Numbered from the whole stretch's first letter, positions 2,510 through 13,517 are shown. The stretch: 63,613 nt of DNA, filler included, from Candidatus Woesearchaeota archaeon (GCA_023266675.1; 4 parts of 4 records of this genome joined end to end with filler, not necessarily neighbours in it); one strand, 5' to 3'. Notes: generated by a model not told the origin, from the letters alone. Numbers and translations are program-made.

Positions 2510-3787
2510 CTATTTCTTAAAATACTTTTTTTCAAAGATAATGTAGTCTATAACTCCGATAATGACTATAAGATTAATGAGGATTGTGTATGGGAAGTAG
2601 AATATAAGCGCTAATAATTTTTTGAGGTTCATTTTTTCCCCGAATAGATAAATGGAATATATGATGATGAATACTGATATTATTCCTGCAAGGACCCCAA
2701 AAAGGCTCACAAATGATATTCCCCAAACAGGAACCATATAAAGGACTTTAATTGCCCCAAATATGCTAAACCAATTAAATGTATACATGAAGATATTAAA
2801 AAAAGAGTCATTATTGAAAGGAAGCCAGTAAAAGAACTGATAGGCGATTAATGGAAGTGAGAGGACGGCATAAATGCTCCACCATATCTGATTTATGAAG
2901 AGATAATTTATTGAAAAATTTGTTTTTACTGAAAATTTTGTTCTATGCTTTTTTAAGACCTGTAGTACCCCTACATACCATCTTAATCTTTGTTTTATAT
3001 AACCAAGTATTGTTAAAGGGACAGTTGTATAAGCGTATGCGTCTGAGACATTTAGAGAGTTGAATCCTTCACCGTATATTTCAAGCGAGATATCAATATC
3101 TTCGCTTTGTGTGTCTTTTTTAAACCCGCCAATTTTGTTTAATACATCTTTTCTGTAACATGAAAAGGCGCCAAGAAACCAGCTGACATTTGAGAAAACA
3201 TCAGAAAAGCTTTTTCTTATAATATTTATATAAGGATATTCAACATCTTGAAAAGCGCCAAGTATGCCTTTTTTGTTTTTAACAAGACATGATCCTGTTG
3301 TTGCGCCAATTGAATTATTGTAGAACGGGGCTATTATTTTTGAGATGGAATCATTTTTTAGTACAGTATCTGCATCGACAAGCAAGATATAGTCATGTTT
3401 TGATATTTTTAGGCCAAGATTAAGGCTTGCAGATTTACCTTTGTGATTTCCATTTATTACAATCAGTTCTTCATGTTTTTTTTTAAGATTTTTTAGAAGT
3501 TTTGAAGTATCGTCTGTACTGCCATCATCAATTACTATTACTTCATATTTTGATTTTGGGTAAGATGATGAGAAAATTGATGTTAAGCAATCTTCAATAT
3601 TCTTCTCTTCATTATATGCAGGAACAAGAATGCTTATGTTTGGTTCGTATTTTTTATACTTCCTTTTTTTGAATAGTCCTATAATTATTATAATTGTCAT
3701 GAACATTATCATTGAAAACATGATAAAGAATGTTATTATGCTTATGTTTAGTATGATGTCTTTCGAATAAAGTTCTATATTAACCAT
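2510..3787 (-). CDS. Processive GT2 glycosyltransferase (PgaC/IcaA-like)
   Basis: PAYNEE, DDGSTD, DAD, SED, QRLRW motifs; C-terminal TMs. Confidence 0.9.
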   Translation of the reverse strand: MVNIELYSKDIILNISIITFFIMFSMIMFMTIIIIIGLFKKRKYKKYEPNISILVPAYNEEKNIEDCLTSIFSSSYPKSKYEVIVIDDGSTDDTSKLLKNLKKKHEELIVINGNHKGKSASLNLGLKISKHDYILLVDADTVLKNDSISKIIAPFYNNSIGATTGSCLVKNKKGILGAFQDVEYPYINIIRKSFSDVFSNVSWFLGAFSCYRKDVLNKIGGFKKDTQSEDIDISLEIYGEGFNSLNVSDAYAYTTVPLTILGYIKQRLRWYVGVLQVLKKHRTKFSVKTNFSINYLFINQIWWSIYAVLSLPLIAYQFFYWLPFNNDSFFNIFMYTFNWFSIFGAIKVLYMVPVWGISFVSLFGVLAGIISVFIIIYSIYLFGEKMNLKKLLALIFYFPYTILINLIVIIGVIDYIIFEKKYFKK

Positions 3788-3963: not shown

Positions 3964-5754
3964 ATGGGTGAACAGACAGTTAATTTAAATAACTTTTCAG
4001 GTACTGATAAGACTGTAAGTAAAGGAGTAAGTAAAGAGGATAATGATAAGAAAGAAGTAAAGCCGATTGCTGCCAAAAACGACACTGTTTCAAAGGCTCA
4101 TGAGATGGCTAAAGGGCAGCGTGATATTTCTGTTGCCGAGTTTTTTGAGAAAAACAGGCATTTACTTGGGTTTGATAATAAGAGAAAAGCTCTTTTGACA
4201 ACTATTAAAGAAGCTGTTGATAACTCACTAGACGCATGCGAAGAAGCAGGAATATTACCTGAAGTTCATGTTGACATTGTTGATATGGGTAATGACAGGT
4301 TCATGATTAAAGTTGAGGATAATGGCCCTGGAATCGTAAAAAAACAGATTCCAAGCATTTTCGCAAAGCTTCTTTACGGCTCAAAGTTTCATTCATTAAA
4401 GCAGTCCAGAGGACAGCAGGGTATTGGTATCTCTGCAGCAGCGCTTTATGGACAGCTTACAACAGGTAAACCAATTAGAATACTTTCTAAGATTGGACCG
4501 ATGGAGCCTGCGCATTACATGGAGCTTCATATTGACACTTCAAAAAATAAGCCAGAGATAATAAAGGAAGAAGTCCGCGACTGGTATAAGGAGCACGGAA
4601 CAAAGCTAGAGCTTGATATTGAAGGAATCTATCAGAAGGGCGGTCAGTCTGTTGATGAGTATATGAAGCAGACAGCAATTGCTAACCCTCACGTGACACT
4701 TGTTTACACTAATCCTAAAGCTGAGCAGATAATTTTTCCAAGAGCAACTGATGAGCTTCCAAAAGAGGCAAAGAACATCAAACCTCACCCTTATGGAATT
4801 GAGCTTGGTATATTGATAAGAATGCTTGCGCAGACTGAAACAAAGACTCTCCAGCAGTTTTTAACAAGTGAATTCTCAAGGGTTTCGCCTAACAACGCAA
4901 AGCAAATATGTGAAGAGGCATCAGTTCTTCCGAATACATCTCCTTCAAAGGTTTCAAGAGAAATGGCTGAAAAGCTTATTGAGGGAATAAAGAAAACAAA
5001 GATTATAGCGCCGTCAACGGACTGCATCTCACCAATTGGCGCAGAACAACTTAAGAAGGGTCTTAAAAAAGAGATTAACGCAGAATTTTATACTGCTGTA
5101 ACACGTTCACCTGAAATTTATCGAGGAAACCCGTTTGTCATTGAAGCAGGAATCGCTTATGGCGGAGACCAAAAAGCTGATGGTTCAATCAATATTTACA
5201 GATATGCTAACAGAGTGCCATTATTATATCAGCAGGGAGCATGCGCTATCACTGATGCTATTCAATCAACCAACTGGAAGCCTTACGGACTTCAGCAATC
5301 AGGAAATTCAACACCACAGGGCCCAATGACTATAACTGTTCATATGGCGTCTGTCTGGGTGCCTTTTACCAGTGAAGCAAAGGAAGCTCTAGCTCATTAT
5401 CCTGAGATAATCAAAGAGATTAAACTAGCTATACAAGAATGCGGCCGAGACCTTGCAAGCTATGTGATGAAGAAAAGAAGAGTAAAAGATGAGTTTAAAA
5501 AACGAAGTTATATTGAAAAATATATCCCTCACGTTGGACAAGCTTTGCAGGAGATGCTAAAGCTTAGTGATATTGAAGAAAAGAGAGTTGAAGGAAACCT
5601 AAAAGAGCTTCTTGAAAAAAGCAGAGGAAAACTTGATGATGTTGACTTTGACCCAGACAAGAATGAAGAGTATGATGAAAATTTTGCTAATATAGGAAAA
5701 GAAGAAACAGAAAAAGAAAGCAATGAAGAAGAGAAAGAAAAGAGTGATGAATAA
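3964..5754 (+). CDS. top6B: DNA topoisomerase VI subunit B
   Basis: GHKL motifs EAVDNSLDA, DNGPGI, SRGQQGIG; RYANRVPLL. Confidence 0.97.
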   Translation: MGEQTVNLNNFSGTDKTVSKGVSKEDNDKKEVKPIAAKNDTVSKAHEMAKGQRDISVAEFFEKNRHLLGFDNKRKALLTTIKEAVDNSLDACEEAGILPEVHVDIVDMGNDRFMIKVEDNGPGIVKKQIPSIFAKLLYGSKFHSLKQSRGQQGIGISAAALYGQLTTGKPIRILSKIGPMEPAHYMELHIDTSKNKPEIIKEEVRDWYKEHGTKLELDIEGIYQKGGQSVDEYMKQTAIANPHVTLVYTNPKAEQIIFPRATDELPKEAKNIKPHPYGIELGILIRMLAQTETKTLQQFLTSEFSRVSPNNAKQICEEASVLPNTSPSKVSREMAEKLIEGIKKTKIIAPSTDCISPIGAEQLKKGLKKEINAEFYTAVTRSPEIYRGNPFVIEAGIAYGGDQKADGSINIYRYANRVPLLYQQGACAITDAIQSTNWKPYGLQQSGNSTPQGPMTITVHMASVWVPFTSEAKEALAHYPEIIKEIKLAIQECGRDLASYVMKKRRVKDEFKKRSYIEKYIPHVGQALQEMLKLSDIEEKRVEGNLKELLEKSRGKLDDVDFDPDKNEEYDENFANIGKEETEKESNEEEKEKSDE

Positions 5755-5756
5755 AG

Positions 5757-6878
5757 ATGCCTAAAGAGAAAGATAAGAAAGAGAAAATTATGATTGAAAA
5801 TGAAGTTACTGATAAAATAAGAAGTAAAGCCAGAGGAGTATTTGATGACATTATCTCTTTAAAGCTTCCTAAGATGGAAATCCCTATTCGAAGCCTTCAA
5901 AACGTTGAGTATAATGAAGACAAGGGACACTTTGTCCAGATGGGTAAGATGAAGGAACGAAATTTAACTGCATCAACAATCAAAACATTTGCGCAGACAC
6001 TTAGAATGATGAATCTTTCACGGGAAATCGTTGGAAACGATGACATCGCTACAAAGAGAGAAGCGTATTACGTCTCCAAGAACTGGGGAGAAGCAAGGTT
6101 TAACGAGCAGCCTGAATCTGACGCTGTTATGGATGATATTGAAGCTATGATGGAAGTTAACCGAGAGCAGATTGGTTTCATCCCTGAAGAGAAGGGAGGC
6201 GAGATTGCCGGCGAATTAATCATTGTTGACAGAGACCCTGAAACTAAAAAAGAGTTAAAGATTGACTGCACAAAGATGGGTTCAGGCGCTTACGCTGCAC
6301 CTAGCTCATGCGAACACTTAAAGTTTGAAACAAAAGCAGATTTTATTTTAGCAATAGAAACAGCAGGTATGTTTCAGCGACTAGTAAAACACAGATACTG
6401 GAAAAAAGCAAACTGCATATTAATCTCAATGGGAGGAGTCCCAACACGAGCTTGCAGAAGATTTATAAGACGCCTTAGTGACGAGAAGAAACTTCCTGTT
6501 TACGCATTCACAGATGGAGACTTTTACGGATTCATGAATATTTATAGGACTCTAAAAGTTGGTTCAGGAAACGCTTCGCATATTAATGAATTTTTTTGTG
6601 TTCCAGAAGCAAAGTTTATTGGCGTAACCCCTCAGGACATAATTGATTATAATCTTCCTACGCATCCGCTTAAAGAAGTTGACATTAAAAGAGGAAAAGA
6701 CGCAATTAAAAACGACCCTTTCGTTCATGCGCATAAAGAATGGCAAAAAGCAATTGAACTGCAATTAAAACTTGGCAAAAGGGCAGAGCAGCAGGCGTTC
6801 GCAGCTTATGACTTGAACTATGTTATGGATAAATATTTGCCTGATAAACTCAAAGACAGAAAGACATGGCTTCCTTAA
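5757..6878 (+). CDS. top6A: DNA topoisomerase VI subunit A
   Basis: Spo11-like TKREAYY, AIETAGMF, TDGD toprim motifs; follows top6B. Confidence 0.97.
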   Translation: MPKEKDKKEKIMIENEVTDKIRSKARGVFDDIISLKLPKMEIPIRSLQNVEYNEDKGHFVQMGKMKERNLTASTIKTFAQTLRMMNLSREIVGNDDIATKREAYYVSKNWGEARFNEQPESDAVMDDIEAMMEVNREQIGFIPEEKGGEIAGELIIVDRDPETKKELKIDCTKMGSGAYAAPSSCEHLKFETKADFILAIETAGMFQRLVKHRYWKKANCILISMGGVPTRACRRFIRRLSDEKKLPVYAFTDGDFYGFMNIYRTLKVGSGNASHINEFFCVPEAKFIGVTPQDIIDYNLPTHPLKEVDIKRGKDAIKNDPFVHAHKEWQKAIELQLKLGKRAEQQAFAAYDLNYVMDKYLPDKLKDRKTWLP

Positions 6879-7678
6879 TCTAGCGGACTTTTTATATTCT
6901 CAAATCTTCTTGTGTCCATATTTATGTATGCTTTTCTTGTTGTCTCAATATTTGAATGTCCTAAAAGCGCTGATATATCATGTAGAGGAACGCCGTTATT
7001 TAGAAGGTGAGTTGCGTAGCTTGCGCGAAGCATATGAGGATAAACATTTTTTTCTACACCTGCCTTTTTTGCTGCATTTATGATTATTAATTCTGCCGTC
7101 CTTATTGATATGTGTTTTCCTTTGTTATAGGATGATTCAAAGAGATAATCAGATACCTGATAATCTGAATAATCATTCAAAAACCTGTCTGAGAGTTTGA
7201 CAAACCTGTCTTTTTTTCCTTTTCCCTGCCGAATTATTGCTCCATTTTCTTTTTCTAAAATATCCTCTTTTCTTATCCTGACTGCTTCGCCGACTCGCAG
7301 GCCTGCAGAGTATATTAACTCAATCAAAAGCCGATGCTTAGAATTGGTAGTAACTTCAATCATCTTTATTATTTCTTCTCGCTTAAGTGTTTTTACGATC
7401 TTTTTTGGAAGACGCGATCGTGAAAAGTCTTTCATGATGTTTCTTTTCATTATTTTCCTGTAATATTTTGTAAGCGCGCTTATCGCAAGCCTTATTGTTG
7501 TTGGCTTTGCAGAATTCATATTAAGATGCAGAAGATATTTTCTCACATCTTCATTTGTCACCTGATGTGGCTTTTTTTTAGCAAACTCCAAGAATTTTTT
7601 GTTGTGATAAACATATGCATCAATTGATTTTTTACTGTCATTTTCTAAAATCATCTCTTCTCTTAACACTTCAAACAT
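6875..7678 (-). CDS. Tyrosine recombinase, integron-integrase-like
   Basis: Likely ATG 7678 after GGTGA RBS; SAM-like N-domain; catalytic R (GLRVGE), K (GKGKK), HMLR, LGH, Y; ends IKSPLD; adjoins a cassette array. Confidence 0.9.
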   Translation of the reverse strand: MFEVLREEMILENDSKKSIDAYVYHNKKFLEFAKKKPHQVTNEDVRKYLLHLNMNSAKPTTIRLAISALTKYYRKIMKRNIMKDFSRSRLPKKIVKTLKREEIIKMIEVTTNSKHRLLIELIYSAGLRVGEAVRIRKEDILEKENGAIIRQGKGKKDRFVKLSDRFLNDYSDYQVSDYLFESSYNKGKHISIRTAELIIINAAKKAGVEKNVYPHMLRASYATHLLNNGVPLHDISALLGHSNIETTRKAYINMDTRRFENIKSPLD

Positions 7679-7703
7679 TTTGTTTTCACCTTTTTTAAAT
7701 AGC

Positions 7704-7818
7704 GCTGCGGCCGGGATTTTCACCCAGGCAACAAGTATTGCGAGTAATTTGAACCCAGATACCCTTGTCGGGCAGTGGCGTATCAAACCACCGCGCTACC
7801 AGGTTACGCTACCGCAGC
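7704..7818 (-). tRNA. tRNA-like element (GAU/Ile anticodon) with 47-nt variable region
   Basis: Acceptor GCTGCGG/CCGCAGC, D-arm GCGT-AACCTGGTA-GCGC, anticodon arm GTGGT-TTGATAC-GCCAC, T-arm CTGGG-TGAAAAT-CCCGG; atypical T-loop and insert. Confidence 0.6.
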
Positions 7819-7942: not shown

Positions 7943-8194
7943 GCTTTTTCTTTTTTTAATTCTGAAGAATCCATTTATATATCTCACGCGAGCATGTCCA
8001 GTGTCCAGTGAAGCACTTTGTCGTCGATAACTAGCTGTCCAGTGGATTAACATTTCTTCTGTTCTTATTCATTTTAGCCTCAAATTTCAAAGACTTTTGC
8101 AAAAAGCGTTCATTGTTTGTTCTGATTGAGAATCATAAACCAACATGAGCCCTTTGCAAAGTATGAGTTATAGAAAAAATTTGAGGTTATAAAA

Positions 8195-8413
8195 ATGAAT
8201 AAAGAAAAGATAAAAGGATTAATATCAATGTATGACATGTTATTTGACGACTATTCAAGGCAGATGCTTTGGGTATGCAATAAAGAGTTCTCACAAAGAA
8301 AAAAACGCGCTATATCGGCAGATATCACAGTAAGAATGTTCTTTAAGCTTCTCTATGCACACACCTACCTTATGGAAGAGGCGGAAGAAACAAAAACCCC
8401 AAAAGAAGTTTAG
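8195..8413 (+). CDS. Hypothetical 72-aa protein
   Basis: GAGGT RBS and ATG; no recognisable family. Confidence 0.5.
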   Translation: MNKEKIKGLISMYDMLFDDYSRQMLWVCNKEFSQRKKRAISADITVRMFFKLLYAHTYLMEEAEETKTPKEV

Positions 8414-8485
8414 GGCAGTTTTTATTTATAAAACTTGCGCACGCAGTAATTCACGACAAACATCAAAAACCTTCGTCTAATAGAT

Positions 8486-8492
8486 GTTAAGT
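8486..8492 (+). other. First crossover core site GTTAAGT (attI-like or half attC)
   Basis: Preceded by CTTCG...GA-TGTT like the right arms of downstream sites, but no matching left arm seen. Confidence 0.55.
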
Positions 8493-8513
8493 TCAATATT
8501 ACTCGGGGGCGAT

Positions 8514-8762
8514 TTAGAATTCACCACGAAATGTTGGTCCATGACATTTGGGGCATTTTACATCTCTATGTATATCTGCAGCGATGTTACAAAAAGGACA
8601 ATATCTTCCATCATCTTTTGTTAAATCTCCCAAAGATTCTCTAAGTTCTGATAACTTTGCGCAATCTTCTAATATCTGTTCTTTTGTACGATTTTTATCT
8701 CCAACATTTATTACCTCAAACCATGTAACACCATATGCAACGATTTCGTTTTGATTATTCAT
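8514..8762 (-). CDS. Cassette 1 gene: small Zn-ribbon protein
   Basis: CPFC...CPKC; TTTATATA box upstream. Confidence 0.75.
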   Translation of the reverse strand: MNNQNEIVAYGVTWFEVINVGDKNRTKEQILEDCAKLSELRESLGDLTKDDGRYCPFCNIAADIHRDVKCPKCHGPTFRGEF

Positions 8763-8870
8763 GAATTATAGAATGATTAAATATTATATAAAAAGATTAC
8801 TATTCTGCCCCCTGCGTCATACTCTGCGTCGCCTTCGGCTCCTTGTCTCGCCCACTTTGTAGGCTCAAGA

Positions 8871-8990
8871 ATATAACACGAATTTAGCGGTTCACTTCGG
8901 CTCGCCACTTTGAAGCTTCGCCTCCGTTCTCCCAAATCCTTTAATGTTGCTTCGCAACTTAAATGACATCGCTAAATTCGTATGTTTCTC
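8871..8990 (+). repeat. attC-like site 1
   Basis: AACA-CGAATTTAGCG ... CGCTAAATTCG-TA-TGTT; CCCAAAT at 8931. Confidence 0.8.
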
Positions 8991-9268
8991 AAAATTTTTC
9001 GTCTCCTTTACAGCTTCGCAAAAATTATTTTATTCCGCCACCTTCGTTAAATCTACCGACGAGAAGACAAACTAAGAAATTCCTTGCACTTCTTATAACA
9101 ATGATTTAACGGCTCGCTACGCTCAACCTAAATTTTTTCTTATCAACACGGAAATCAGGGGTAAACTTAATAAAGTACTATTTTTGAACATAACCTTTAT
9201 ATACCAGTATTACATTCCCATAATAAGGGAATAGTGGAGTACTATACCTTATACAAATTATAAGCAAG

Positions 9269-10033
9269 GTGAATGATATGGATGGCTCTGTAATGCTCAA
9301 CAAACTGGATGAATTTATGTCTACACAGGTTAGAAAGGATGTGCTTAAATGTTATGTTATAAAAGATTCTTCCCAATCAGATGTAGTCACCTGCCTAGAT
9401 AAAATGAAACCCCAATATGGTTCAACTTCTACTGTAGATAGAATTACTTCCAGCTTAAATTATATAGGTATAATTGACAAAGAAGATATAAAAGAAAATA
9501 AGCAATATTACCGCGTTAATTGGCATATTTGGATACAAGAAACATTAAAATCACTTGGATTAAAAAATGTTTCTGAAGAAAAGGTTGCAGAGATTGAGAA
9601 ATTAGTTTCAGACAAAAAAATGATTGCCTTCTATTTTGCATTAACTTCTGAAGACGTATTAAAAACTATATGGCAGGAAAAACTGGATAAGGTTACCCTT
9701 AAAGAGCTTAAAAAAGAAGGGATACAACCGGAGATATTTTTGAATTATATGATTAAACAGGGACCTGGCATCAGTCACTTACCATTTTTCTTCATTTTAT
9801 CAGGGAATCCAATGGCAAAATTATGGGCTAAGGATATGAAAGATACCAAAAAAACTAAAGAAAAATCGTTTATTAAAGCTTTAAATGATGCTATTTTGAA
9901 AGATCCTGCAAAAGAAGTCCTTGAAAAATTCGATGACAAAGTCCTGAAAGAGATAATTGATAATATGAGAAAAATAGAGGAGGCAACAAAAAAACTATTT
10001 ATTGAACAGCTAAAAGAACAAATGAAATCATAA
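9269..10033 (+). CDS. Cassette 2 gene: hypothetical protein, possible N-terminal winged helix
   Basis: Long ORF; TVDRITSSLNYIGII...YYRVN resembles wHTH. Confidence 0.65.
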   Translation: MNDMDGSVMLNKLDEFMSTQVRKDVLKCYVIKDSSQSDVVTCLDKMKPQYGSTSTVDRITSSLNYIGIIDKEDIKENKQYYRVNWHIWIQETLKSLGLKNVSEEKVAEIEKLVSDKKMIAFYFALTSEDVLKTIWQEKLDKVTLKELKKEGIQPEIFLNYMIKQGPGISHLPFFFILSGNPMAKLWAKDMKDTKKTKEKSFIKALNDAILKDPAKEVLEKFDDKVLKEIIDNMRKIEEATKKLFIEQLKEQMKS

Positions 10034-10159
10034 TTAAGTACTTAGCACGGAACAATTCCCATAAGAAGAACTGCCCCGCGTAAGCGTGTTACAACTTTTC
10101 TTTTTATTAGGGAGTATTTAAACTTTTTTGTTCTGCGCTAGTAACTTTAAAAAAATAAG

Positions 10160-10747
10160 GTGAAAGCAATGGAAAAACAAAAAATACAAGAAGTATTTTC
10201 CGAGCAGATAAAGCCGCAACTCGGAAGGATACATAAAGAAGAAAAATATCTGAATATAGTGTGGCAGTTAGCTGAAAATGCTTCAGCTAATGATGGAAAA
10301 GGATTGAGAGAAGCGCAACTCACAGATGAAGTAAAACCTGCGTCACAAGCTTTGAATCGGCTTGCAGATAAAGGATTTGTTGAAATTACTCTTCCTGTTG
10401 GAAACGGAACCTTACTTATTGACCCTATAAACAATAAAAGAGAACTTTTCAAAAAGCAGGAGATGATTGAAAGATATTTTACGAAGTTTAGACTGCATCT
10501 CGATAGTAGTCAAGAAGTACAACAAATAGCTATGGAAGTGCTACATCTTAATTCCGAACGCGAATTAAACCGATGGGCAGAGTCACTTGAAGAGCAAGAT
10601 AACTTTGAGCGATATAACCTTGTCGTTTTCAAATTACTTGAAAGAGGAATTGAAGTCGGAAAGCAATTTTATGGTCCAATGCACTGGCGGAAGATGAGTA
10701 AATTTTACAACATTTCTGAAAAGACAAAAACAATTCTTGAGGGATGA
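10160..10747 (+). CDS. Cassette 2 gene: hypothetical protein, possible winged helix
   Basis: SQALNRLADKGFVEI. Confidence 0.65.
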   Translation: MKAMEKQKIQEVFSEQIKPQLGRIHKEEKYLNIVWQLAENASANDGKGLREAQLTDEVKPASQALNRLADKGFVEITLPVGNGTLLIDPINNKRELFKKQEMIERYFTKFRLHLDSSQEVQQIAMEVLHLNSERELNRWAESLEEQDNFERYNLVVFKLLERGIEVGKQFYGPMHWRKMSKFYNISEKTKTILEG

Positions 10748-10938
10748 ACATGACAAAATTTATCTCACGAAGAAATACAAATGTCGATTTTAGCTTTATT
10801 GCAAAAAATCCTGCAACAATCTTAATTGCAGGAGGCGTTCTTTTTTTGTTGATTGGCAAAGAATTATGGGGAGTATTACTCATTATATTAGGAGTAGTGC
10901 TTCACTTAATATGGTTAAAAGGAAAAGGGAGGATATAA
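10744..10938 (+). CDS. Cassette 2 gene: small 2-TM membrane protein
   Basis: Hydrophobic hairpin; ATGA overlap with upstream gene. Confidence 0.65.
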   Translation: MNMTKFISRRNTNVDFSFIAKNPATILIAGGVLFLLIGKELWGVLLIILGVVLHLIWLKGKGRI

Positions 10939-10939
10939 A

Positions 10940-11263
10940 ATGTTAAGCCTAATAGACACATGGATAAAAGCGACGGTTGAACATAGAATACTGAATATTG
11001 AGTATTTTAGCCACACAAAACAAGAGTATACTAAAAGAGATATTGAACCTGATTTTATAGGACCTTCCAGAGATGGAAGAAATAATGGAATATGGGCTAC
11101 ATTTTGTCATCTAAGAAACGAAGGCCCAAGATGTTTTCAACCACATTCTGTAAAGCATTTTTCCATTACTGAAAAAAGCTTTTCTCCTTCACCATTAGGA
11201 AGATGGAAAGAACTGTTGCCATTGTATGAACAAAAAGGACTTAAAGAAAAAGAGTTTGGGTGA
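10940..11263 (+). CDS. Cassette 2 gene: stand-alone WYL-domain protein
   Basis: LNIEY...TKRDIEP...ATFCHLRNEGPRCF matches the WYL pattern. Confidence 0.7.
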   Translation: MLSLIDTWIKATVEHRILNIEYFSHTKQEYTKRDIEPDFIGPSRDGRNNGIWATFCHLRNEGPRCFQPHSVKHFSITEKSFSPSPLGRWKELLPLYEQKGLKEKEFG

Positions 11264-11269
11264 ATTAAA

Positions 11270-11974
11270 ATGAAACTCAAACCCCTCTTTTTATGCTTCT
11301 TGTTAATGAGCACAGTATTGTTTAGTGCATGTACACAACAACAAATTACAGATACAACTGGACAAGTAATTGCATCCGGAAAGAAAATGCTTGATGACAC
11401 CAAGAATTTCGTGTCTAACGAAAGTGCAAGAGATGAAACAAAGATAAGTATGGCTAGTGGAATTGCCGAGTTTGCGACTAACTCCAATATAAAAAAAATA
11501 GAAAAAATTGAAACTTATCAACAATATATTGCAATGGCAGATAACTTAAATTTCGTAATTGATGTTATCAATAAAAAAACAGATGCGAACATAAAACAAA
11601 TATCCAAAGGAGTAGAGGACTGGAACAAATTTAATATGGAAGCTACGCGTTACGCACCTCTTTTTGAAAACTATAATAGTTTAGTGGACAGTTGTTACGC
11701 ATTTGATAAAAACAATGAAAAATCTGCTAACCTAGTATTAATAAAGTCAAGCAGCTTTACTGCAGAAGCGTTATTAATTTTAGGAACTGCATTTTATAAA
11801 ACTGCATTTTTTGCCACAGGGAAAATTGCTGAAGCCACAGGGATAACAAAACTGGCATCCGTATGTGATTCCTGTGTATCTTCAGCTATGAGTGCAGGCC
11901 ATTGGACTATACGTAATGGAATGATTGAAAAAACCACTGAATTTGCTGAAAATATTACATTAGCAAATACTTGA
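11270..11974 (+). CDS. Cassette 2 gene: lipoprotein
   Basis: Signal peptide with FSAC lipobox. Confidence 0.7.
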   Translation: MKLKPLFLCFLLMSTVLFSACTQQQITDTTGQVIASGKKMLDDTKNFVSNESARDETKISMASGIAEFATNSNIKKIEKIETYQQYIAMADNLNFVIDVINKKTDANIKQISKGVEDWNKFNMEATRYAPLFENYNSLVDSCYAFDKNNEKSANLVLIKSSSFTAEALLILGTAFYKTAFFATGKIAEATGITKLASVCDSCVSSAMSAGHWTIRNGMIEKTTEFAENITLANT

Positions 11975-12111
11975 ATTATTATAACTACCCCTGATTTCCT
12001 ATACAATGCTTCGCATGATATTTTTTATGGTTGATAAGAAAAAACTACGGCGGCGGAATAATTTTTGGAGACGAAAAACTCAAGCCCTCGCCACTTACGT
12101 AGCTTCGGGTC

Positions 12112-12250
12112 GAGAAACAAGCGTTAAGCGGTTCGTTTCGCTTGTCCACTTCGTAGCCTTCGCTTCACTCACCCAAATTTGATTTCAACTCTGAATTGCG
12201 GTGTACCTCAATTCGAGGAAATCAAACTTCGCTTAACGCTGATGTTAAAT
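12112..12250 (+). repeat. attC-like site 2
   Basis: AACA-AGCGTTAAGCG ... CGCTTAACGCT-GA-TGTT; CCCAAAT at 12172. Confidence 0.85.
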
Positions 12251-12266
12251 ACAATAAATGCATTTC

Positions 12267-12599
12267 CTATTTACGTGGCTTGGCAACATCAAAAGATCCC
12301 ATAATCTGCTCACGAGTTTTTTCCCATGTCCCATATTTTCTGAGAATTAGATGTGCACATTCTTTTGTAAATATAATATATGCATAAATATCTGATTTTA
12401 CAAATCCGTCTGGGGAATCACTCGAATCAATCACTAAATAATAGTCCATTAAATCGTTATATTTATGGAATTTACGACCAGAATCTTCAAGTGCAAAAAT
12501 TCGGTATAGCTCATTAGCAGTCTGGATTTCAGCTTTAAATTTAAACCAAATAGAATCTTCACTAGAACTAATTCCTTTAATCAATGGTTTTGATGTCAT
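12267..12599 (-). CDS. Cassette 3 gene: hypothetical protein
   Basis: 110-aa ORF filling the cassette. Confidence 0.7.
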   Translation of the reverse strand: MTSKPLIKGISSSEDSIWFKFKAEIQTANELYRIFALEDSGRKFHKYNDLMDYYLVIDSSDSPDGFVKSDIYAYIIFTKECAHLILRKYGTWEKTREQIMGSFDVAKPRK

Positions 12600-12719
12600 A
12601 ATAAGCCAAGTAAATGTTTTAATTTATGTATTTTACGGAAATGCATTTACTTCTCCGCTCCTCGACTGCGGTCTGTGGTGCTCGACCACGTTGCACTCTC
12701 AGCCTGCGGGCTTCGGGGT

Positions 12720-12830
12720 ATTTAACAGCGATTACACGGCTCACTCCTTGCAGTCGTTCGACCCAAATTCCTCGCCTATCTTATAACTGAAATTTTGTGC
12801 GAGGAACTTCGTGTAATCGCGATGTTATGT
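12720..12830 (+). repeat. attC-like site 3
   Basis: AACA-GCGATTACACG ... CGTGTAATCGC-GA-TGTT; CCCAAAT at 12762. Confidence 0.85.
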
Positions 12831-12899
12831 GCAATATTACTCAGGGACAAATAAAATAATTTAGTAAACCTTTTATAGAAACTAATCTAAGTATAGATA

Positions 12900-13322
12900 A
12901 TGGAGAAGACAATCATGGGAATATTTTCTGATGGATGGTGGATATTCTCTCAAGGATTAGATGGATTGATTTATTTTTGGTATGTAACATTAATATTAGT
13001 TCTCATGCTTTGTCTTTCAATTTATTTGATGTATAGAAAAAAAATAAAATTTCCTAAAAAGAGATTATACTTTTTGTTATATCCACTTTTTTTACCAGTT
13101 ATCATTTCTTTATTAGGTTCGATATTTTATGATACTCAATATGCTGGTATTGGGTATTTACCTGTTTTTTTATTTTTTTCAGATTTTATTTATTCAGCTA
13201 TTCTAATATACAAATTCAAGGATTATAGATTATTTCTATTTTCATTTTTTGGTTTACTTATTTGGTTAACTTTCTGGGTTCTTTTTGTTGCTGGAATGTC
13301 AATTGCTAATGATTGGATGTAA
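12900..13322 (+). CDS. Cassette 4 gene: 4-TM membrane protein
   Basis: Hydrophobic ORF ending GMSIANDWM. Confidence 0.75.
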   Translation: MEKTIMGIFSDGWWIFSQGLDGLIYFWYVTLILVLMLCLSIYLMYRKKIKFPKKRLYFLLYPLFLPVIISLLGSIFYDTQYAGIGYLPVFLFFSDFIYSAILIYKFKDYRLFLFSFFGLLIWLTFWVLFVAGMSIANDWM

Positions 13323-13376
13323 TTTTATTTGTCCCTTGCGTCATACTACCCTCGCTCACGTTGTAAGCTTCGGTGC

Positions 13377-13517
13377 ACATAACAGCGATTAACTGGTTCG
13401 GCACTTCGTGGTTCCCACTCTAAAGGTCTCCGCCCACGAAATGCCTCTCCCAAATTGCGAACACTATTTGATAACTAAACTTTTGGTTCGCAACTCCAGT
13501 TAATCGCGTTGTTATAC
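13377..13517 (+). repeat. attC-like site 4 (end of array)
   Basis: AACA-GCGATTAACTGG ... CCAGTTAATCGC-GT-TGTT; CCCAAAT at 13449. Confidence 0.85.

Follow-up and report, generated by a model that had tools for sequence, protein, structure and literature searches.

Whether hairpin-bounded gene cassettes can be recombined without the specialised features of integrons is a question raised by a locus in a Candidatus Woesearchaeota archaeon (GCA_023266675.1). In integron biology, the I2 domain of the integrase and the extrahelical bases of the attC site are held to have co-evolved for single-strand recombination of cassettes, which leaves a chicken-and-egg problem that has been stated as such (PMC4792948). 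The locus lies in a window of 63,613 nucleotides (nt), by which we mean the whole stretch of DNA analysed, filler included; positions 1–20465 of the window are contig C57 of a 1.22-Mb assembly (G000; 95.9% complete, 83 contigs). Its topoisomerase VI genes and its small, AT-rich genome fit a Woesearchaeota-like DPANN archaeon. Between 8871 and 13517, four hairpins in the same orientation delimit an array of four cassettes, which is upstream of and divergent from a gene for a XerA-family tyrosine recombinase, and about 40% of related genomes have an array arranged in this way. A preliminary description of this DNA had taken the hairpins for recombination sites of an integron-like array, a reading that the shared orientation, the R-box halves swapped between neighbouring sites and the recurrent layout beside a recombinase all support at the level of sequence. 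We consider it likely that these hairpins serve for cassette recombination in a gene-capture platform of integron-like type, run by a dedicated XerA paralogue and not by an integron integrase.

The hairpin sites and their conservation

All four sites have the form AACA-stem...complementary stem-NN-TGTT, with a different stem in each and an unpaired dinucleotide on the 3' arm (Table 1); site 1 can alternatively be drawn with a 12-bp stem and an AT bulge. Each hairpin contains CCCAAAT once on the + strand, at the same relative position. It is this placement that is non-random, as the count across the window (10) is close to the chance mean of 10.6. DNA folding gives a three-way junction for each strand of each site, with z-scores of −2.5 to −5.8 relative to dinucleotide shuffles, and recovers the inner sub-hairpins named in the preliminary description, whose account of the layout, the dinucleotides and the CCCAAAT positions is likewise confirmed. 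The same holds for the departure from canonical attC sites that it had pointed out, in that the 5–6-nt unpaired central spacer is absent and the four window sites have no extrahelical L base. A scan of the whole 1.22-Mb genome found about 20 further AAC...GTT hairpins with stems of at least 9 bp, and CCCAAAT and the layout shared by the four sites are absent from all of them. The four sites fall within a single 4.6-kb stretch and are not dispersed, as palindromes of the repetitive extragenic (REP) or miniature inverted-repeat transposable element (MITE) type would be.

A strict palindrome scan of 20 recombinase neighbourhoods, which required perfect stems and long loops, returned few sites, and a covariance model was used instead. 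The model was built from six sites, namely the four in the window and one from each of two relatives. It matches 59 of 151 genomes of the order (E ≤ 0.001) and 63 of 151 genomes of a phylum-wide sample (E ≤ 1e-4), 11 of the latter belonging to other orders of the class. These tallies include the unpublished genomes G132, G112 and G183, the first of which also supplies one or two sites and one row of the tree described below; omitting all three makes no material difference. The arrays that were fetched gave 108 matches at 104 non-overlapping places, corresponding to 97 distinct full-length sites from about 37 genomes.

Within this larger set, AACA is found at the start of 90 of the 97 sites and TGTT at the end of 88, and the dinucleotide preceding TGTT is GA in 57 of those 88. 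The motif YCCAAAT (Y being C or T) is present in 77 of the 97 sites, compared to 1.4 expected from shuffles, and never on the opposite strand; a hairpin follows it immediately on the 3' side in 80 of 83 sites. The 97 sites have 54 different 11-nt stems. In an alignment fitted to the model, which favours pairing, pairing holds in 95% of cells, compared to 76% after shuffling and 31–43% after sliding, and changes on both sides are seen in 10 of the 11 stem pairs. The earlier observation that the stems differ and yet always pair, i.e. that they covary, thus extends to the larger set. The four AACA/TGTT pairs are nearly unvarying, and are uninformative on pairing for that reason. Stem positions 5–6 are TT in 101–102 of 108 rows, so that of the stem as originally pictured the pairing stands and the freedom of sequence does not.

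The preliminary description had also named a loss of the bulge position in a larger set as an outcome that would refute it. This outcome is not what the larger set shows: a bulge confined to the 3' arm, beside the triplet, is found in 70 of the 97 sites (2 nt in 64 and 3 nt in 6), and the usual fold consists of a 4–8-bp helix, a 0 × 2 bulge and an 8–12-bp helix. In about 15 sites the 3' arm is bulged a second time, again by 2 nt, 10–12 bp further inward. To call the fold invariant is nevertheless too strong, as 27 of the 97 sites deviate from it and 14 members of the family have one additional base bulging from the opposite arm. In the closest relative, G113 (locus L035; sites at 8055–8133 and 7400–7483), one side of the docking junction and of the first sites reads AAT/ATT instead of AAC/GTT. 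These first sites also have their unpaired bases two positions closer to the triplet and an additional base on the other arm, so that the bulge is not strictly fixed in place.

A single 19-nt site core (AACA + stem + GTTC) is matched exactly in 70 stretches of public genomes (loci L107–L176). Most of these are labelled Woesearchaeota, Pacearchaeota or Nanoarchaeota, and some carry the labels of Patescibacteria-group bacteria, of Aenigmatarchaeota or, implausibly, of Methanosarcinales or Gammaproteobacteria. This distribution reflects either the spread of one type of site across lineages or mis-binning.

Cassettes, docking site and recombinase

The clearest sign that the hairpins bound exchangeable units comes from their flanks. 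The 4 nt after the GTT of one site are fully complementary to the 4 nt before the AAC of the next in 48 of 59 neighbour pairs, and 35 of the 59 remain so over 6 nt. Within a single site, by contrast, the left and right flanks match in only 18 of 97 cases. Neighbouring flanks match at 3.63 of 4 positions on average, compared to 2.09 for random pairings, and none of 2000 resampling means reached 2.5. The pairs in the window are TCTC/GAGA, AAAT/ATTT and ATGT/ACAT. Pairs that fail the rule mostly span long gaps, in which an intervening site has probably been missed. It follows that the halves of the R box are swapped between neighbours, and that a whole R box is formed only when cassette ends join at G↓TT (the arrow marking the crossover). 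Such complementarity is, as a sequence pattern, a hallmark of integron cassettes. It also reaches inwards: beyond the first six bases, cassette-end duplexes have a mean energy of −13.9 kcal/mol, compared to −8.8 for mismatched partners, and 23 of 45 lie beyond the 5th percentile of the controls. The ends of the 3.3-kb cassette 2 carry long private inverted repeats (about 8990–9173 versus 11976–12080; duplex energy −25.5 kcal/mol).

The boundaries of cassette 1 (Table 1) are set by the GTT crossover rule. The median cassette length between sites is 724 bp. A Pfam match was obtained for 17 of 50 cassette open reading frames (ORFs), including MntP, TrmB, SurE, methyltransferase, SET, Fic, ParE, nucleotidyltransferase and LemA. 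Some cassettes start with TTNNNNNCAATATTACTC(G/A)G and finish with TGCGTCATACT 45–75 nt before their own site (8487–8510/8806–8830 and 12825–12850/13330–13350 in the window; also L035), with a cassette-private inverted repeat just inside these motifs; the same motifs are found in G113, G099 and G120. Other classes of site are preceded by 100–250 nt of conserved non-coding hairpins, for example ACTCTGCGGACGCAGG, CGTTGCACT and GTCCTTCGGAC, which make up several families of modules. The repeated unit is thus longer than the AAC...GTT hairpin, and the functional unit exceeds the hairpin, since it includes the conserved upstream modules and the cassette-private inverted repeats. At the other extreme, G020 has two 'collapsed' sites of 26 nt (L089:2515–2540 and 3719–3744; AACAAGGATCCTGATGTT with flanks), which keep the R box, the bulge and 4–5 stem pairs, lack the whole interior and obey the neighbour-flank rule; they may be deletion products or minimal sites.

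The recombinase is most similar to XerA. Its best score is against the NCBIfam model XerA_Arch (185.6 bits, below the 220-bit equivalog cut-off), and it aligns end to end with the Pyrococcus abyssi XerA structure. The catalytic Arg, Lys, His-x-x-Arg, His and Tyr lie in motifs that align as well. The IntI model (TIGR02249, cut-off 265 bits) matches it in two pieces with 151.9 bits. Its residues 165–181 lie opposite residues 172–233 of Vibrio cholerae IntI4 (2a3v), so that 15 residues stand where IntI4 has 60, and the additional domain of IntI, i.e. the I2 helix region, is absent. Translation probably starts at the ATG at 7678, because the longer ORF (6875–7786) runs into a tRNA gene. The only other tyrosine recombinase of the genome is a distant 415-aa protein, and neither of the two is an IntI. 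Among the matches listed, G113, G184, G052 and G136 have a single recombinase match each. Across the order, none of 201 genomes reached the IntI cut-off and all matches skip profile positions of about 182–236, in a search in which 14 control genomes also stayed below the cut-off and which therefore has no positive control.

In at least 14 of the 59 site-bearing genomes, a lower bound based on 150 of 209 homologue places, a recombinase homologue lies no more than 7 kb upstream of the sites, on their contig and in divergent orientation. G135 and G034 have a homologue on the same contig as their sites in a different geometry. G184 and G151, both from outside the 151-genome sample, and G028 show the same divergent layout. 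Divergent adjacency to a XerA-type gene is found in at least 16 genomes. The idea that recombinase genes near contig starts always represent broken arrays was rejected: of 20 such starts, 2 are exactly TAAC, 9 have a GTCCAGTG-type motif and 11 are seemingly unrelated.

A quick, unrooted tree of 37 proteins separates two kinds of enzyme. Thirteen context-free enzymes form one short-branched group (SH-aLRT 94), which excludes the enzyme of the window and all of the 12 array-linked, 2 hairpin-only, 5 broken-contig and 1 motif-only rows; the remaining 24 rows comprise all of these and 4 context-free ones. The label 'context-free' changes 3 times on the tree, compared to a mean of 12.6 after shuffling. 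G151 has one enzyme of each kind, array-linked and short-branched context-free. A short-branched member, the array-linked G151 enzyme and the enzyme of the window score 259.7, 227.2 and 185.6 bits, respectively, with XerA_Arch and 214.9, 163.4 and 151.9 bits with the IntI model. The latter ranking means that array-linked enzymes are no closer to IntI than plain XerA is, and judging from these scores the recombinase looks Xer-derived and not like an IntI that has lost a helix. The preliminary description had proposed a different recognition code consistent with loss of the I2 helix. A different code is supported by the distinct features of the sites and by an enzyme that has no I2 or additional domain; the loss is not supported, the best score being to XerA.

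The region between the recombinase gene and the first cassette contains the docking (attI-like) junction, whose right half resembles the right half of the sites. A short, bulge-less hairpin occupies the docking position in G151, G027, G098, G144 and G009, and the TTATACG that follows site 4 resembles the sequence 3' of the docking hairpin in G027, G184 and G144. The motif GTCCAGTG occurs four times in the window, compared to 0.64 expected, and of 30 recombinase homologues, the 12 with arrays or broken contigs have a motif of this type upstream. The docking hairpin of relatives directly follows the GTCCAGTG-type motif. In the window, AACA-N7-TGTT (8049–8063) directly follows the third GTCCAGTG, after which come a 72-aa ORF (8195–8413) and then the AACATC...GATGTT junction. 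The stretch 8045–8458, the flanks of which break the neighbour-complement rule, may be an insertion into the docking site or a decayed part of it. In the sequencing run that is the likely source of the stretch, a 47-nt unitig at 7954–8003 has a depth of 19, compared to 5–6 around it, and contigs branch from it to other sequence on both sides; this stretch at the GTCCAGTG repeats seems to be shared with other genomes or strains of the sample.

Table 1. Features of the array locus and its surroundings, in window coordinates.
Feature	Position	Strand	Details
Topoisomerase VI genes	3964–6878		
XerA-family tyrosine recombinase, 267 aa	6875–7678	−	Pfam Phage_integrase, SAM_4; divergent from array
tRNA gene, 116 nt, presumably intron-bearing	7703–7818	−	Rfam RF00005, 44.9 bits; ARAGORN none; context only
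Three GTCCAGTG repeats, candidate accessory or regulatory binding sites	7996–8044 (7996, 8003, 8037)	+	Between recombinase and docking site
Docking (attI-like) junction, AACATC...GATG↓TT	8459–8488	+	Left arm degenerate; putative crossover between 8486 and 8487
Cassette 1	8487–8984	+	ORF 8514–8762 (−), 82 aa, weak zinc-ribbon match
Site 1	8871–8990	+	AACA...TGTT 8875–8986; AAC 8875–8877; stem CGAATTTAGCG; CCCAAAT 8931–8937; bulge TA; GTT 8984–8986; model 108.6 bits
Cassette 2, 3.3 kb	8985–12244	+	Five co-oriented ORFs: 9269–10033, 10160–10747, 10744–10938, 10940–11263, 11270–11974
Site 2	12112–12250	+	AACA...TGTT 12116–12246; AAC 12116–12118; stem AGCGTTAAGCG; CCCAAAT 12172–12178; bulge GA; GTT 12244–12246; model 119.2 bits
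Cassette 3	12245–12824	+	ORF 12267–12599 (−), 110 aa, no family match
Site 3	12720–12830	+	AACA...TGTT 12724–12826; AAC 12724–12726; stem GCGATTACACG; CCCAAAT 12762–12768; bulge GA; GTT 12824–12826; model 78.8 bits
Cassette 4	12825–13511	+	ORF 12900–13322 (+), 140 aa, membrane-like, no family match
Site 4, last of the array	13377–13517	+	AACA...TGTT 13381–13513; AAC 13381–13383; stem GCGATTAACTGG; CCCAAAT 13449–13455; bulge GT; GTT 13511–13513; model 97.6 bits

Crossover, folded strand and rival explanations

Flank complementarity alone cannot decide whether exchange takes place at the left AAC or the right GTT. G151 and G027, which have near-identical recombinases, share the intergenic region and the bulge-less hairpin (AACATCTTTTAAAC...GTTTAAAAGATGTT) up to GTT and diverge beyond it. 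Between genomes, site similarity covers 110–270 nt upstream of the hairpin and ends 0–20 nt after GTT+4, and of 25 contig ends near these genes, 4 fall exactly at TGTTA/TAAC and 1 within 4 nt. On these patterns exchange at the right GTT is favoured. Tyrosine recombinases cleave with a common polarity, and a right-arm exchange would therefore mean that the bottom strand is cleaved at 5'-TAA↓C-3'. In integrons, the complementary or 'bottom' strand is cleaved likewise (PMC5027507). The converse arrangement, with cleavage of the + strand at the left arm and the bulge opposite AAC as in attC, was considered and rejected, because the docking hairpin stays with the recombinase and the site similarity travels with the upstream DNA.

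The folding energies and loop sequences point to the same strand. The bottom strand is the more stable one in 89 of 94 sites (means of −23.3 versus −21.4 kcal/mol, mean difference 1.98). CTTCG occurs 224 times on the top strand, compared to 5 for CGAAG, and GCTTCGC 60 times, compared to 0 for its complement, which as DNA forms a very stable mini-hairpin. The excess of CTTCG on the top strand makes the bottom strand purine-rich with GAA loops, as in attC. The corresponding bottom-strand advantage of attC is 2.12 kcal/mol over 263 sites (Nivina et al., PMC5027507), and GAA is conserved in the bottom-strand loops of attC (PMC5027507).

On the unbulged arm, the consensus of 83 sites reads ...(T)TG-N3-A/T-TAA↓C-A-N4-TTAA-N3-G.... 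The invariant TT together with the TTAA of this consensus resolves what had been described as an 11–12-bp stem into four variable pairs, i.e. a 4-bp spacer, and a half-site of TTAA type. On this sequence pattern, the stem is probably a spacer plus a second half-site (TTAA...), which would give the folded site a dif-like core. If TAA is taken as the end of the R arm, one strand of the folded site has the form arm-6 nt-arm and the cleaved strand the form arm-8 nt-arm, the additional 2 nt of the longer spacer being the conserved dinucleotide. Archaeal and bacterial dif sites consist of two 11-nt arms around a 6-nt spacer and are cleaved at the spacer ends (PMC8371274, PMC2958812), and the crossover deduced from the cassette borders coincides with such a spacer end.

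These features suggest the following mechanism. The bottom strand, i.e. the complement of the + strand of the window, would fold into a Xer-type core comprising an R arm of about 11 bp ending in TAA, a 6/8-nt spacer and an L arm starting with the invariant TTAA, and one recombinase monomer would bind each of the two arms. The R-arm monomer would cut at 5'-TAA↓C-3' and exchange one strand with either the docking site or a second folded site. Replication would resolve the resulting junction, as it does for integrons and when XerCD integrates CTX phage. By kinking the spacer towards one side, the fixed bulge would confine activity to the R-arm monomer and make the bottom strand the only substrate. 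It would thereby do what the extrahelical bases and the I2 helix do in integrons, namely select the strand and the active monomer and block a second exchange. YCCAAAT and the hairpin that follows it may stabilise the three-way junction or serve as a binding site for a host factor.

The sites could also recombine as duplex DNA by classical two-strand XerA exchange, the palindrome being a by-product, in which case each unfolded arm would be a Xer core (left TAA-N6-TTAA, right TTAA-N8-TTA). The left arm does have a spacer of exactly 6 bp between TAA and TTAA, XerA-type enzymes act on double-stranded dif (PMC8371274) and the present enzyme has no I2-like adaptation. However, the spacers differ within the array of the window (CGAA, AGCG, GCGA and GCGA), and branch migration would therefore be blocked in a two-strand exchange. 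Covariation of 10 of the 11 arm pairs maintains the palindrome, and both the strand asymmetry of the loops (224 versus 5) and the stability of the bottom strand (89 of 94) are hard to explain on duplex DNA. We regard this alternative as unlikely.

Another possibility, and an improbable one, is that of tandem integrated mobile elements which exploit a housekeeping Xer enzyme at dif (IMEX-like), with no dedicated capture platform. In its folded form the site resembles a Xer core and has no extrahelical bases, as described for CTX phage (PMC4792948), and the array-linked enzyme is the sole Xer-type enzyme of this genome. However, the units are 0.5–3.3 kb long and carry accessory or unknown genes, with no genes for replication, packaging or transfer, and the array-linked enzymes form a diverged lineage outside the housekeeping group, both kinds being present in G151. 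Moreover, the array adjoins the recombinase gene, whereas in Thermococcales dif is not beside xerA (PMC2958812).

Also improbable is a standard cluster of integron cassettes (CALIN) that depends on a canonical IntI encoded elsewhere in the genome or in another organism, with the adjoining XerA there by coincidence. The AAC/GTT triplets, the swapped R box and the bottom-strand skew are integron traits, and attC clusters without IntI have been reported in 6 Woesearchaeales and 6 Pacearchaeales genomes (PMC9668308). Such a reading has to contend with the divergent XerA-type adjacency in at least 16 genomes, with the two tyrosine recombinases of the genome itself, neither of which is an IntI, with the 0 of 201 genomes above the IntI cut-off (in the search without a positive control) and with the absence from the sites of the central spacer and extrahelical bases that IntI reads. 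Finally, the intergenic position and the CTTCG-rich sequence, which as RNA includes UUCG-type loops, might suggest transcription terminators, structured RNAs or REP/MITE-like palindromes, but this is hardly credible for sites that are confined to one locus, keep a single orientation regardless of gene direction, show a neighbour-flank complementarity that would be meaningless for an RNA or terminator and match no Rfam family (the sole match in the window is a tRNA; the library has no attC model).

Several observations weigh against the proposed XerA-run platform itself. Among the 30 closest recombinase homologues, many of which are plain XerA, only 5 have a model match within 1.5 kb, and in most site-bearing genomes sites and recombinase are on different contigs. 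The genome of the window has no second bona fide XerA, i.e. none above the equivalog cut-off, and the array-linked enzyme might also, or only, serve chromosome resolution. The cassette ORFs show no orientation bias, unlike those of integrons (the longest ORF runs with the array in 22 cassettes and against it in 26, with none in 3; n = 51), and the bulges lie on the arm of the putatively cleaved AAC, opposite to the integron extrahelical bases, so that the analogy with integrons in strand choice is incomplete and not one to one. A blastp comparison of 61 ORFs from 26 loci found no cassette proteins common to arrays of different genomes apart from one weak pair; as none of the cassettes turned up in a second context, the movement of individual cassettes is undocumented. 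Joints, circles and cassette-less forms were not seen in the contigs of two runs of one study (depth about 5–6), which cover 98% and 20% of the stretch, a result that neither supports nor weakens mobility.

Comparison with known systems

We found no published description of a XerA-linked hairpin-cassette system in the literature, and the array apparently represents a widespread, undescribed variant of the integron principle. Archaeal integrons have been described in which IntI has the additional domain and the attC sites fold canonically; most were clusters lacking IntI, which was ascribed to fragmented assemblies (Ghaly et al. 2022, PMC9668308). The 6 Woesearchaeales and 6 Pacearchaeales genomes had 2–12 attCs each and no IntI, and the supplement text contains no attC sequences for comparison (PMC9668308). 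Against the clusters of these 6 + 6 genomes (PMC9668308), the present model finds sites in 59 of 151. Our broader proposal, to which we give about the same credence as to its negation, is that of a Xer-derived lineage of platforms without I2 or extrahelical bases, which occurs in sister orders as well as in about two fifths of the DPANN archaea of Woesearchaeales-like type, uses a bulged cassette hairpin that imitates dif and is either an independent invention or a surviving Xer-like precursor state of integrons. If it is true, hairpin cassettes are possible before, or without, an I2 domain, and the site is a compact structure-specific recombination target with a different code. Standard integron searches, for which an IntI domain and a match to the canonical attC model are required, would in that case overlook one of the major platforms for gene exchange in DPANN archaea. 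A natural hairpin-cassette system beside a Xer-type enzyme, without either feature, makes the chicken-and-egg question testable on real sequences.

Three known systems invite comparison. With archaeal XerA/dif (PMC2958812, PMC8371274), the system shares the protein family, its length and catalytic motifs and the two arms around a 6-nt spacer. It differs in that the protein is below the XerA equivalog cut-off and outside the housekeeping group, and in that many sites adjoin the gene and bound cassettes, compared to the one site of XerA/dif (a separate dif was not sought). In the integration of CTX-phage attP(+) by XerCD at dif, as is proposed for the present system, a Xer-family enzyme without I2 acts on a folded single strand, in which the stem imitates a duplex Xer core without extrahelical bases and a single exchange would need replication (PMC4792948). 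The present system, by contrast, is archaeal, has a dedicated paralogue beside the array and consists of tandem single-gene cassettes instead of a phage genome.

The likeness to integrons is the most extensive. In both, small cassettes form an array that runs divergently from the recombinase gene, and the sites are imperfect palindromes in one orientation with conserved AAC...GTT, crossover at G↓TT and R-box halves swapped between neighbours. The bottom strand is the more stable one, purine-rich with GAA loops, and the cargo is diverse and mostly unknown, with genes of toxin-antitoxin type. However, the present recombinase has no IntI-specific domain and scores as XerA. The attC site has a 5–6-nt unpaired central spacer on each arm and extrahelical bases near L'', opposite the cleaved AAC (PMC5027507), whereas the present sites have a one-arm 2-nt bulge beside the triplet and, in the four of the window, no such extrahelical bases. 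R-box complementarity extends much further here, via the private inverted repeats, and the cassette ORFs show no orientation bias, whereas integron genes are mostly co-oriented for expression from Pc. Finally, the docking site is in several relatives itself a short hairpin.

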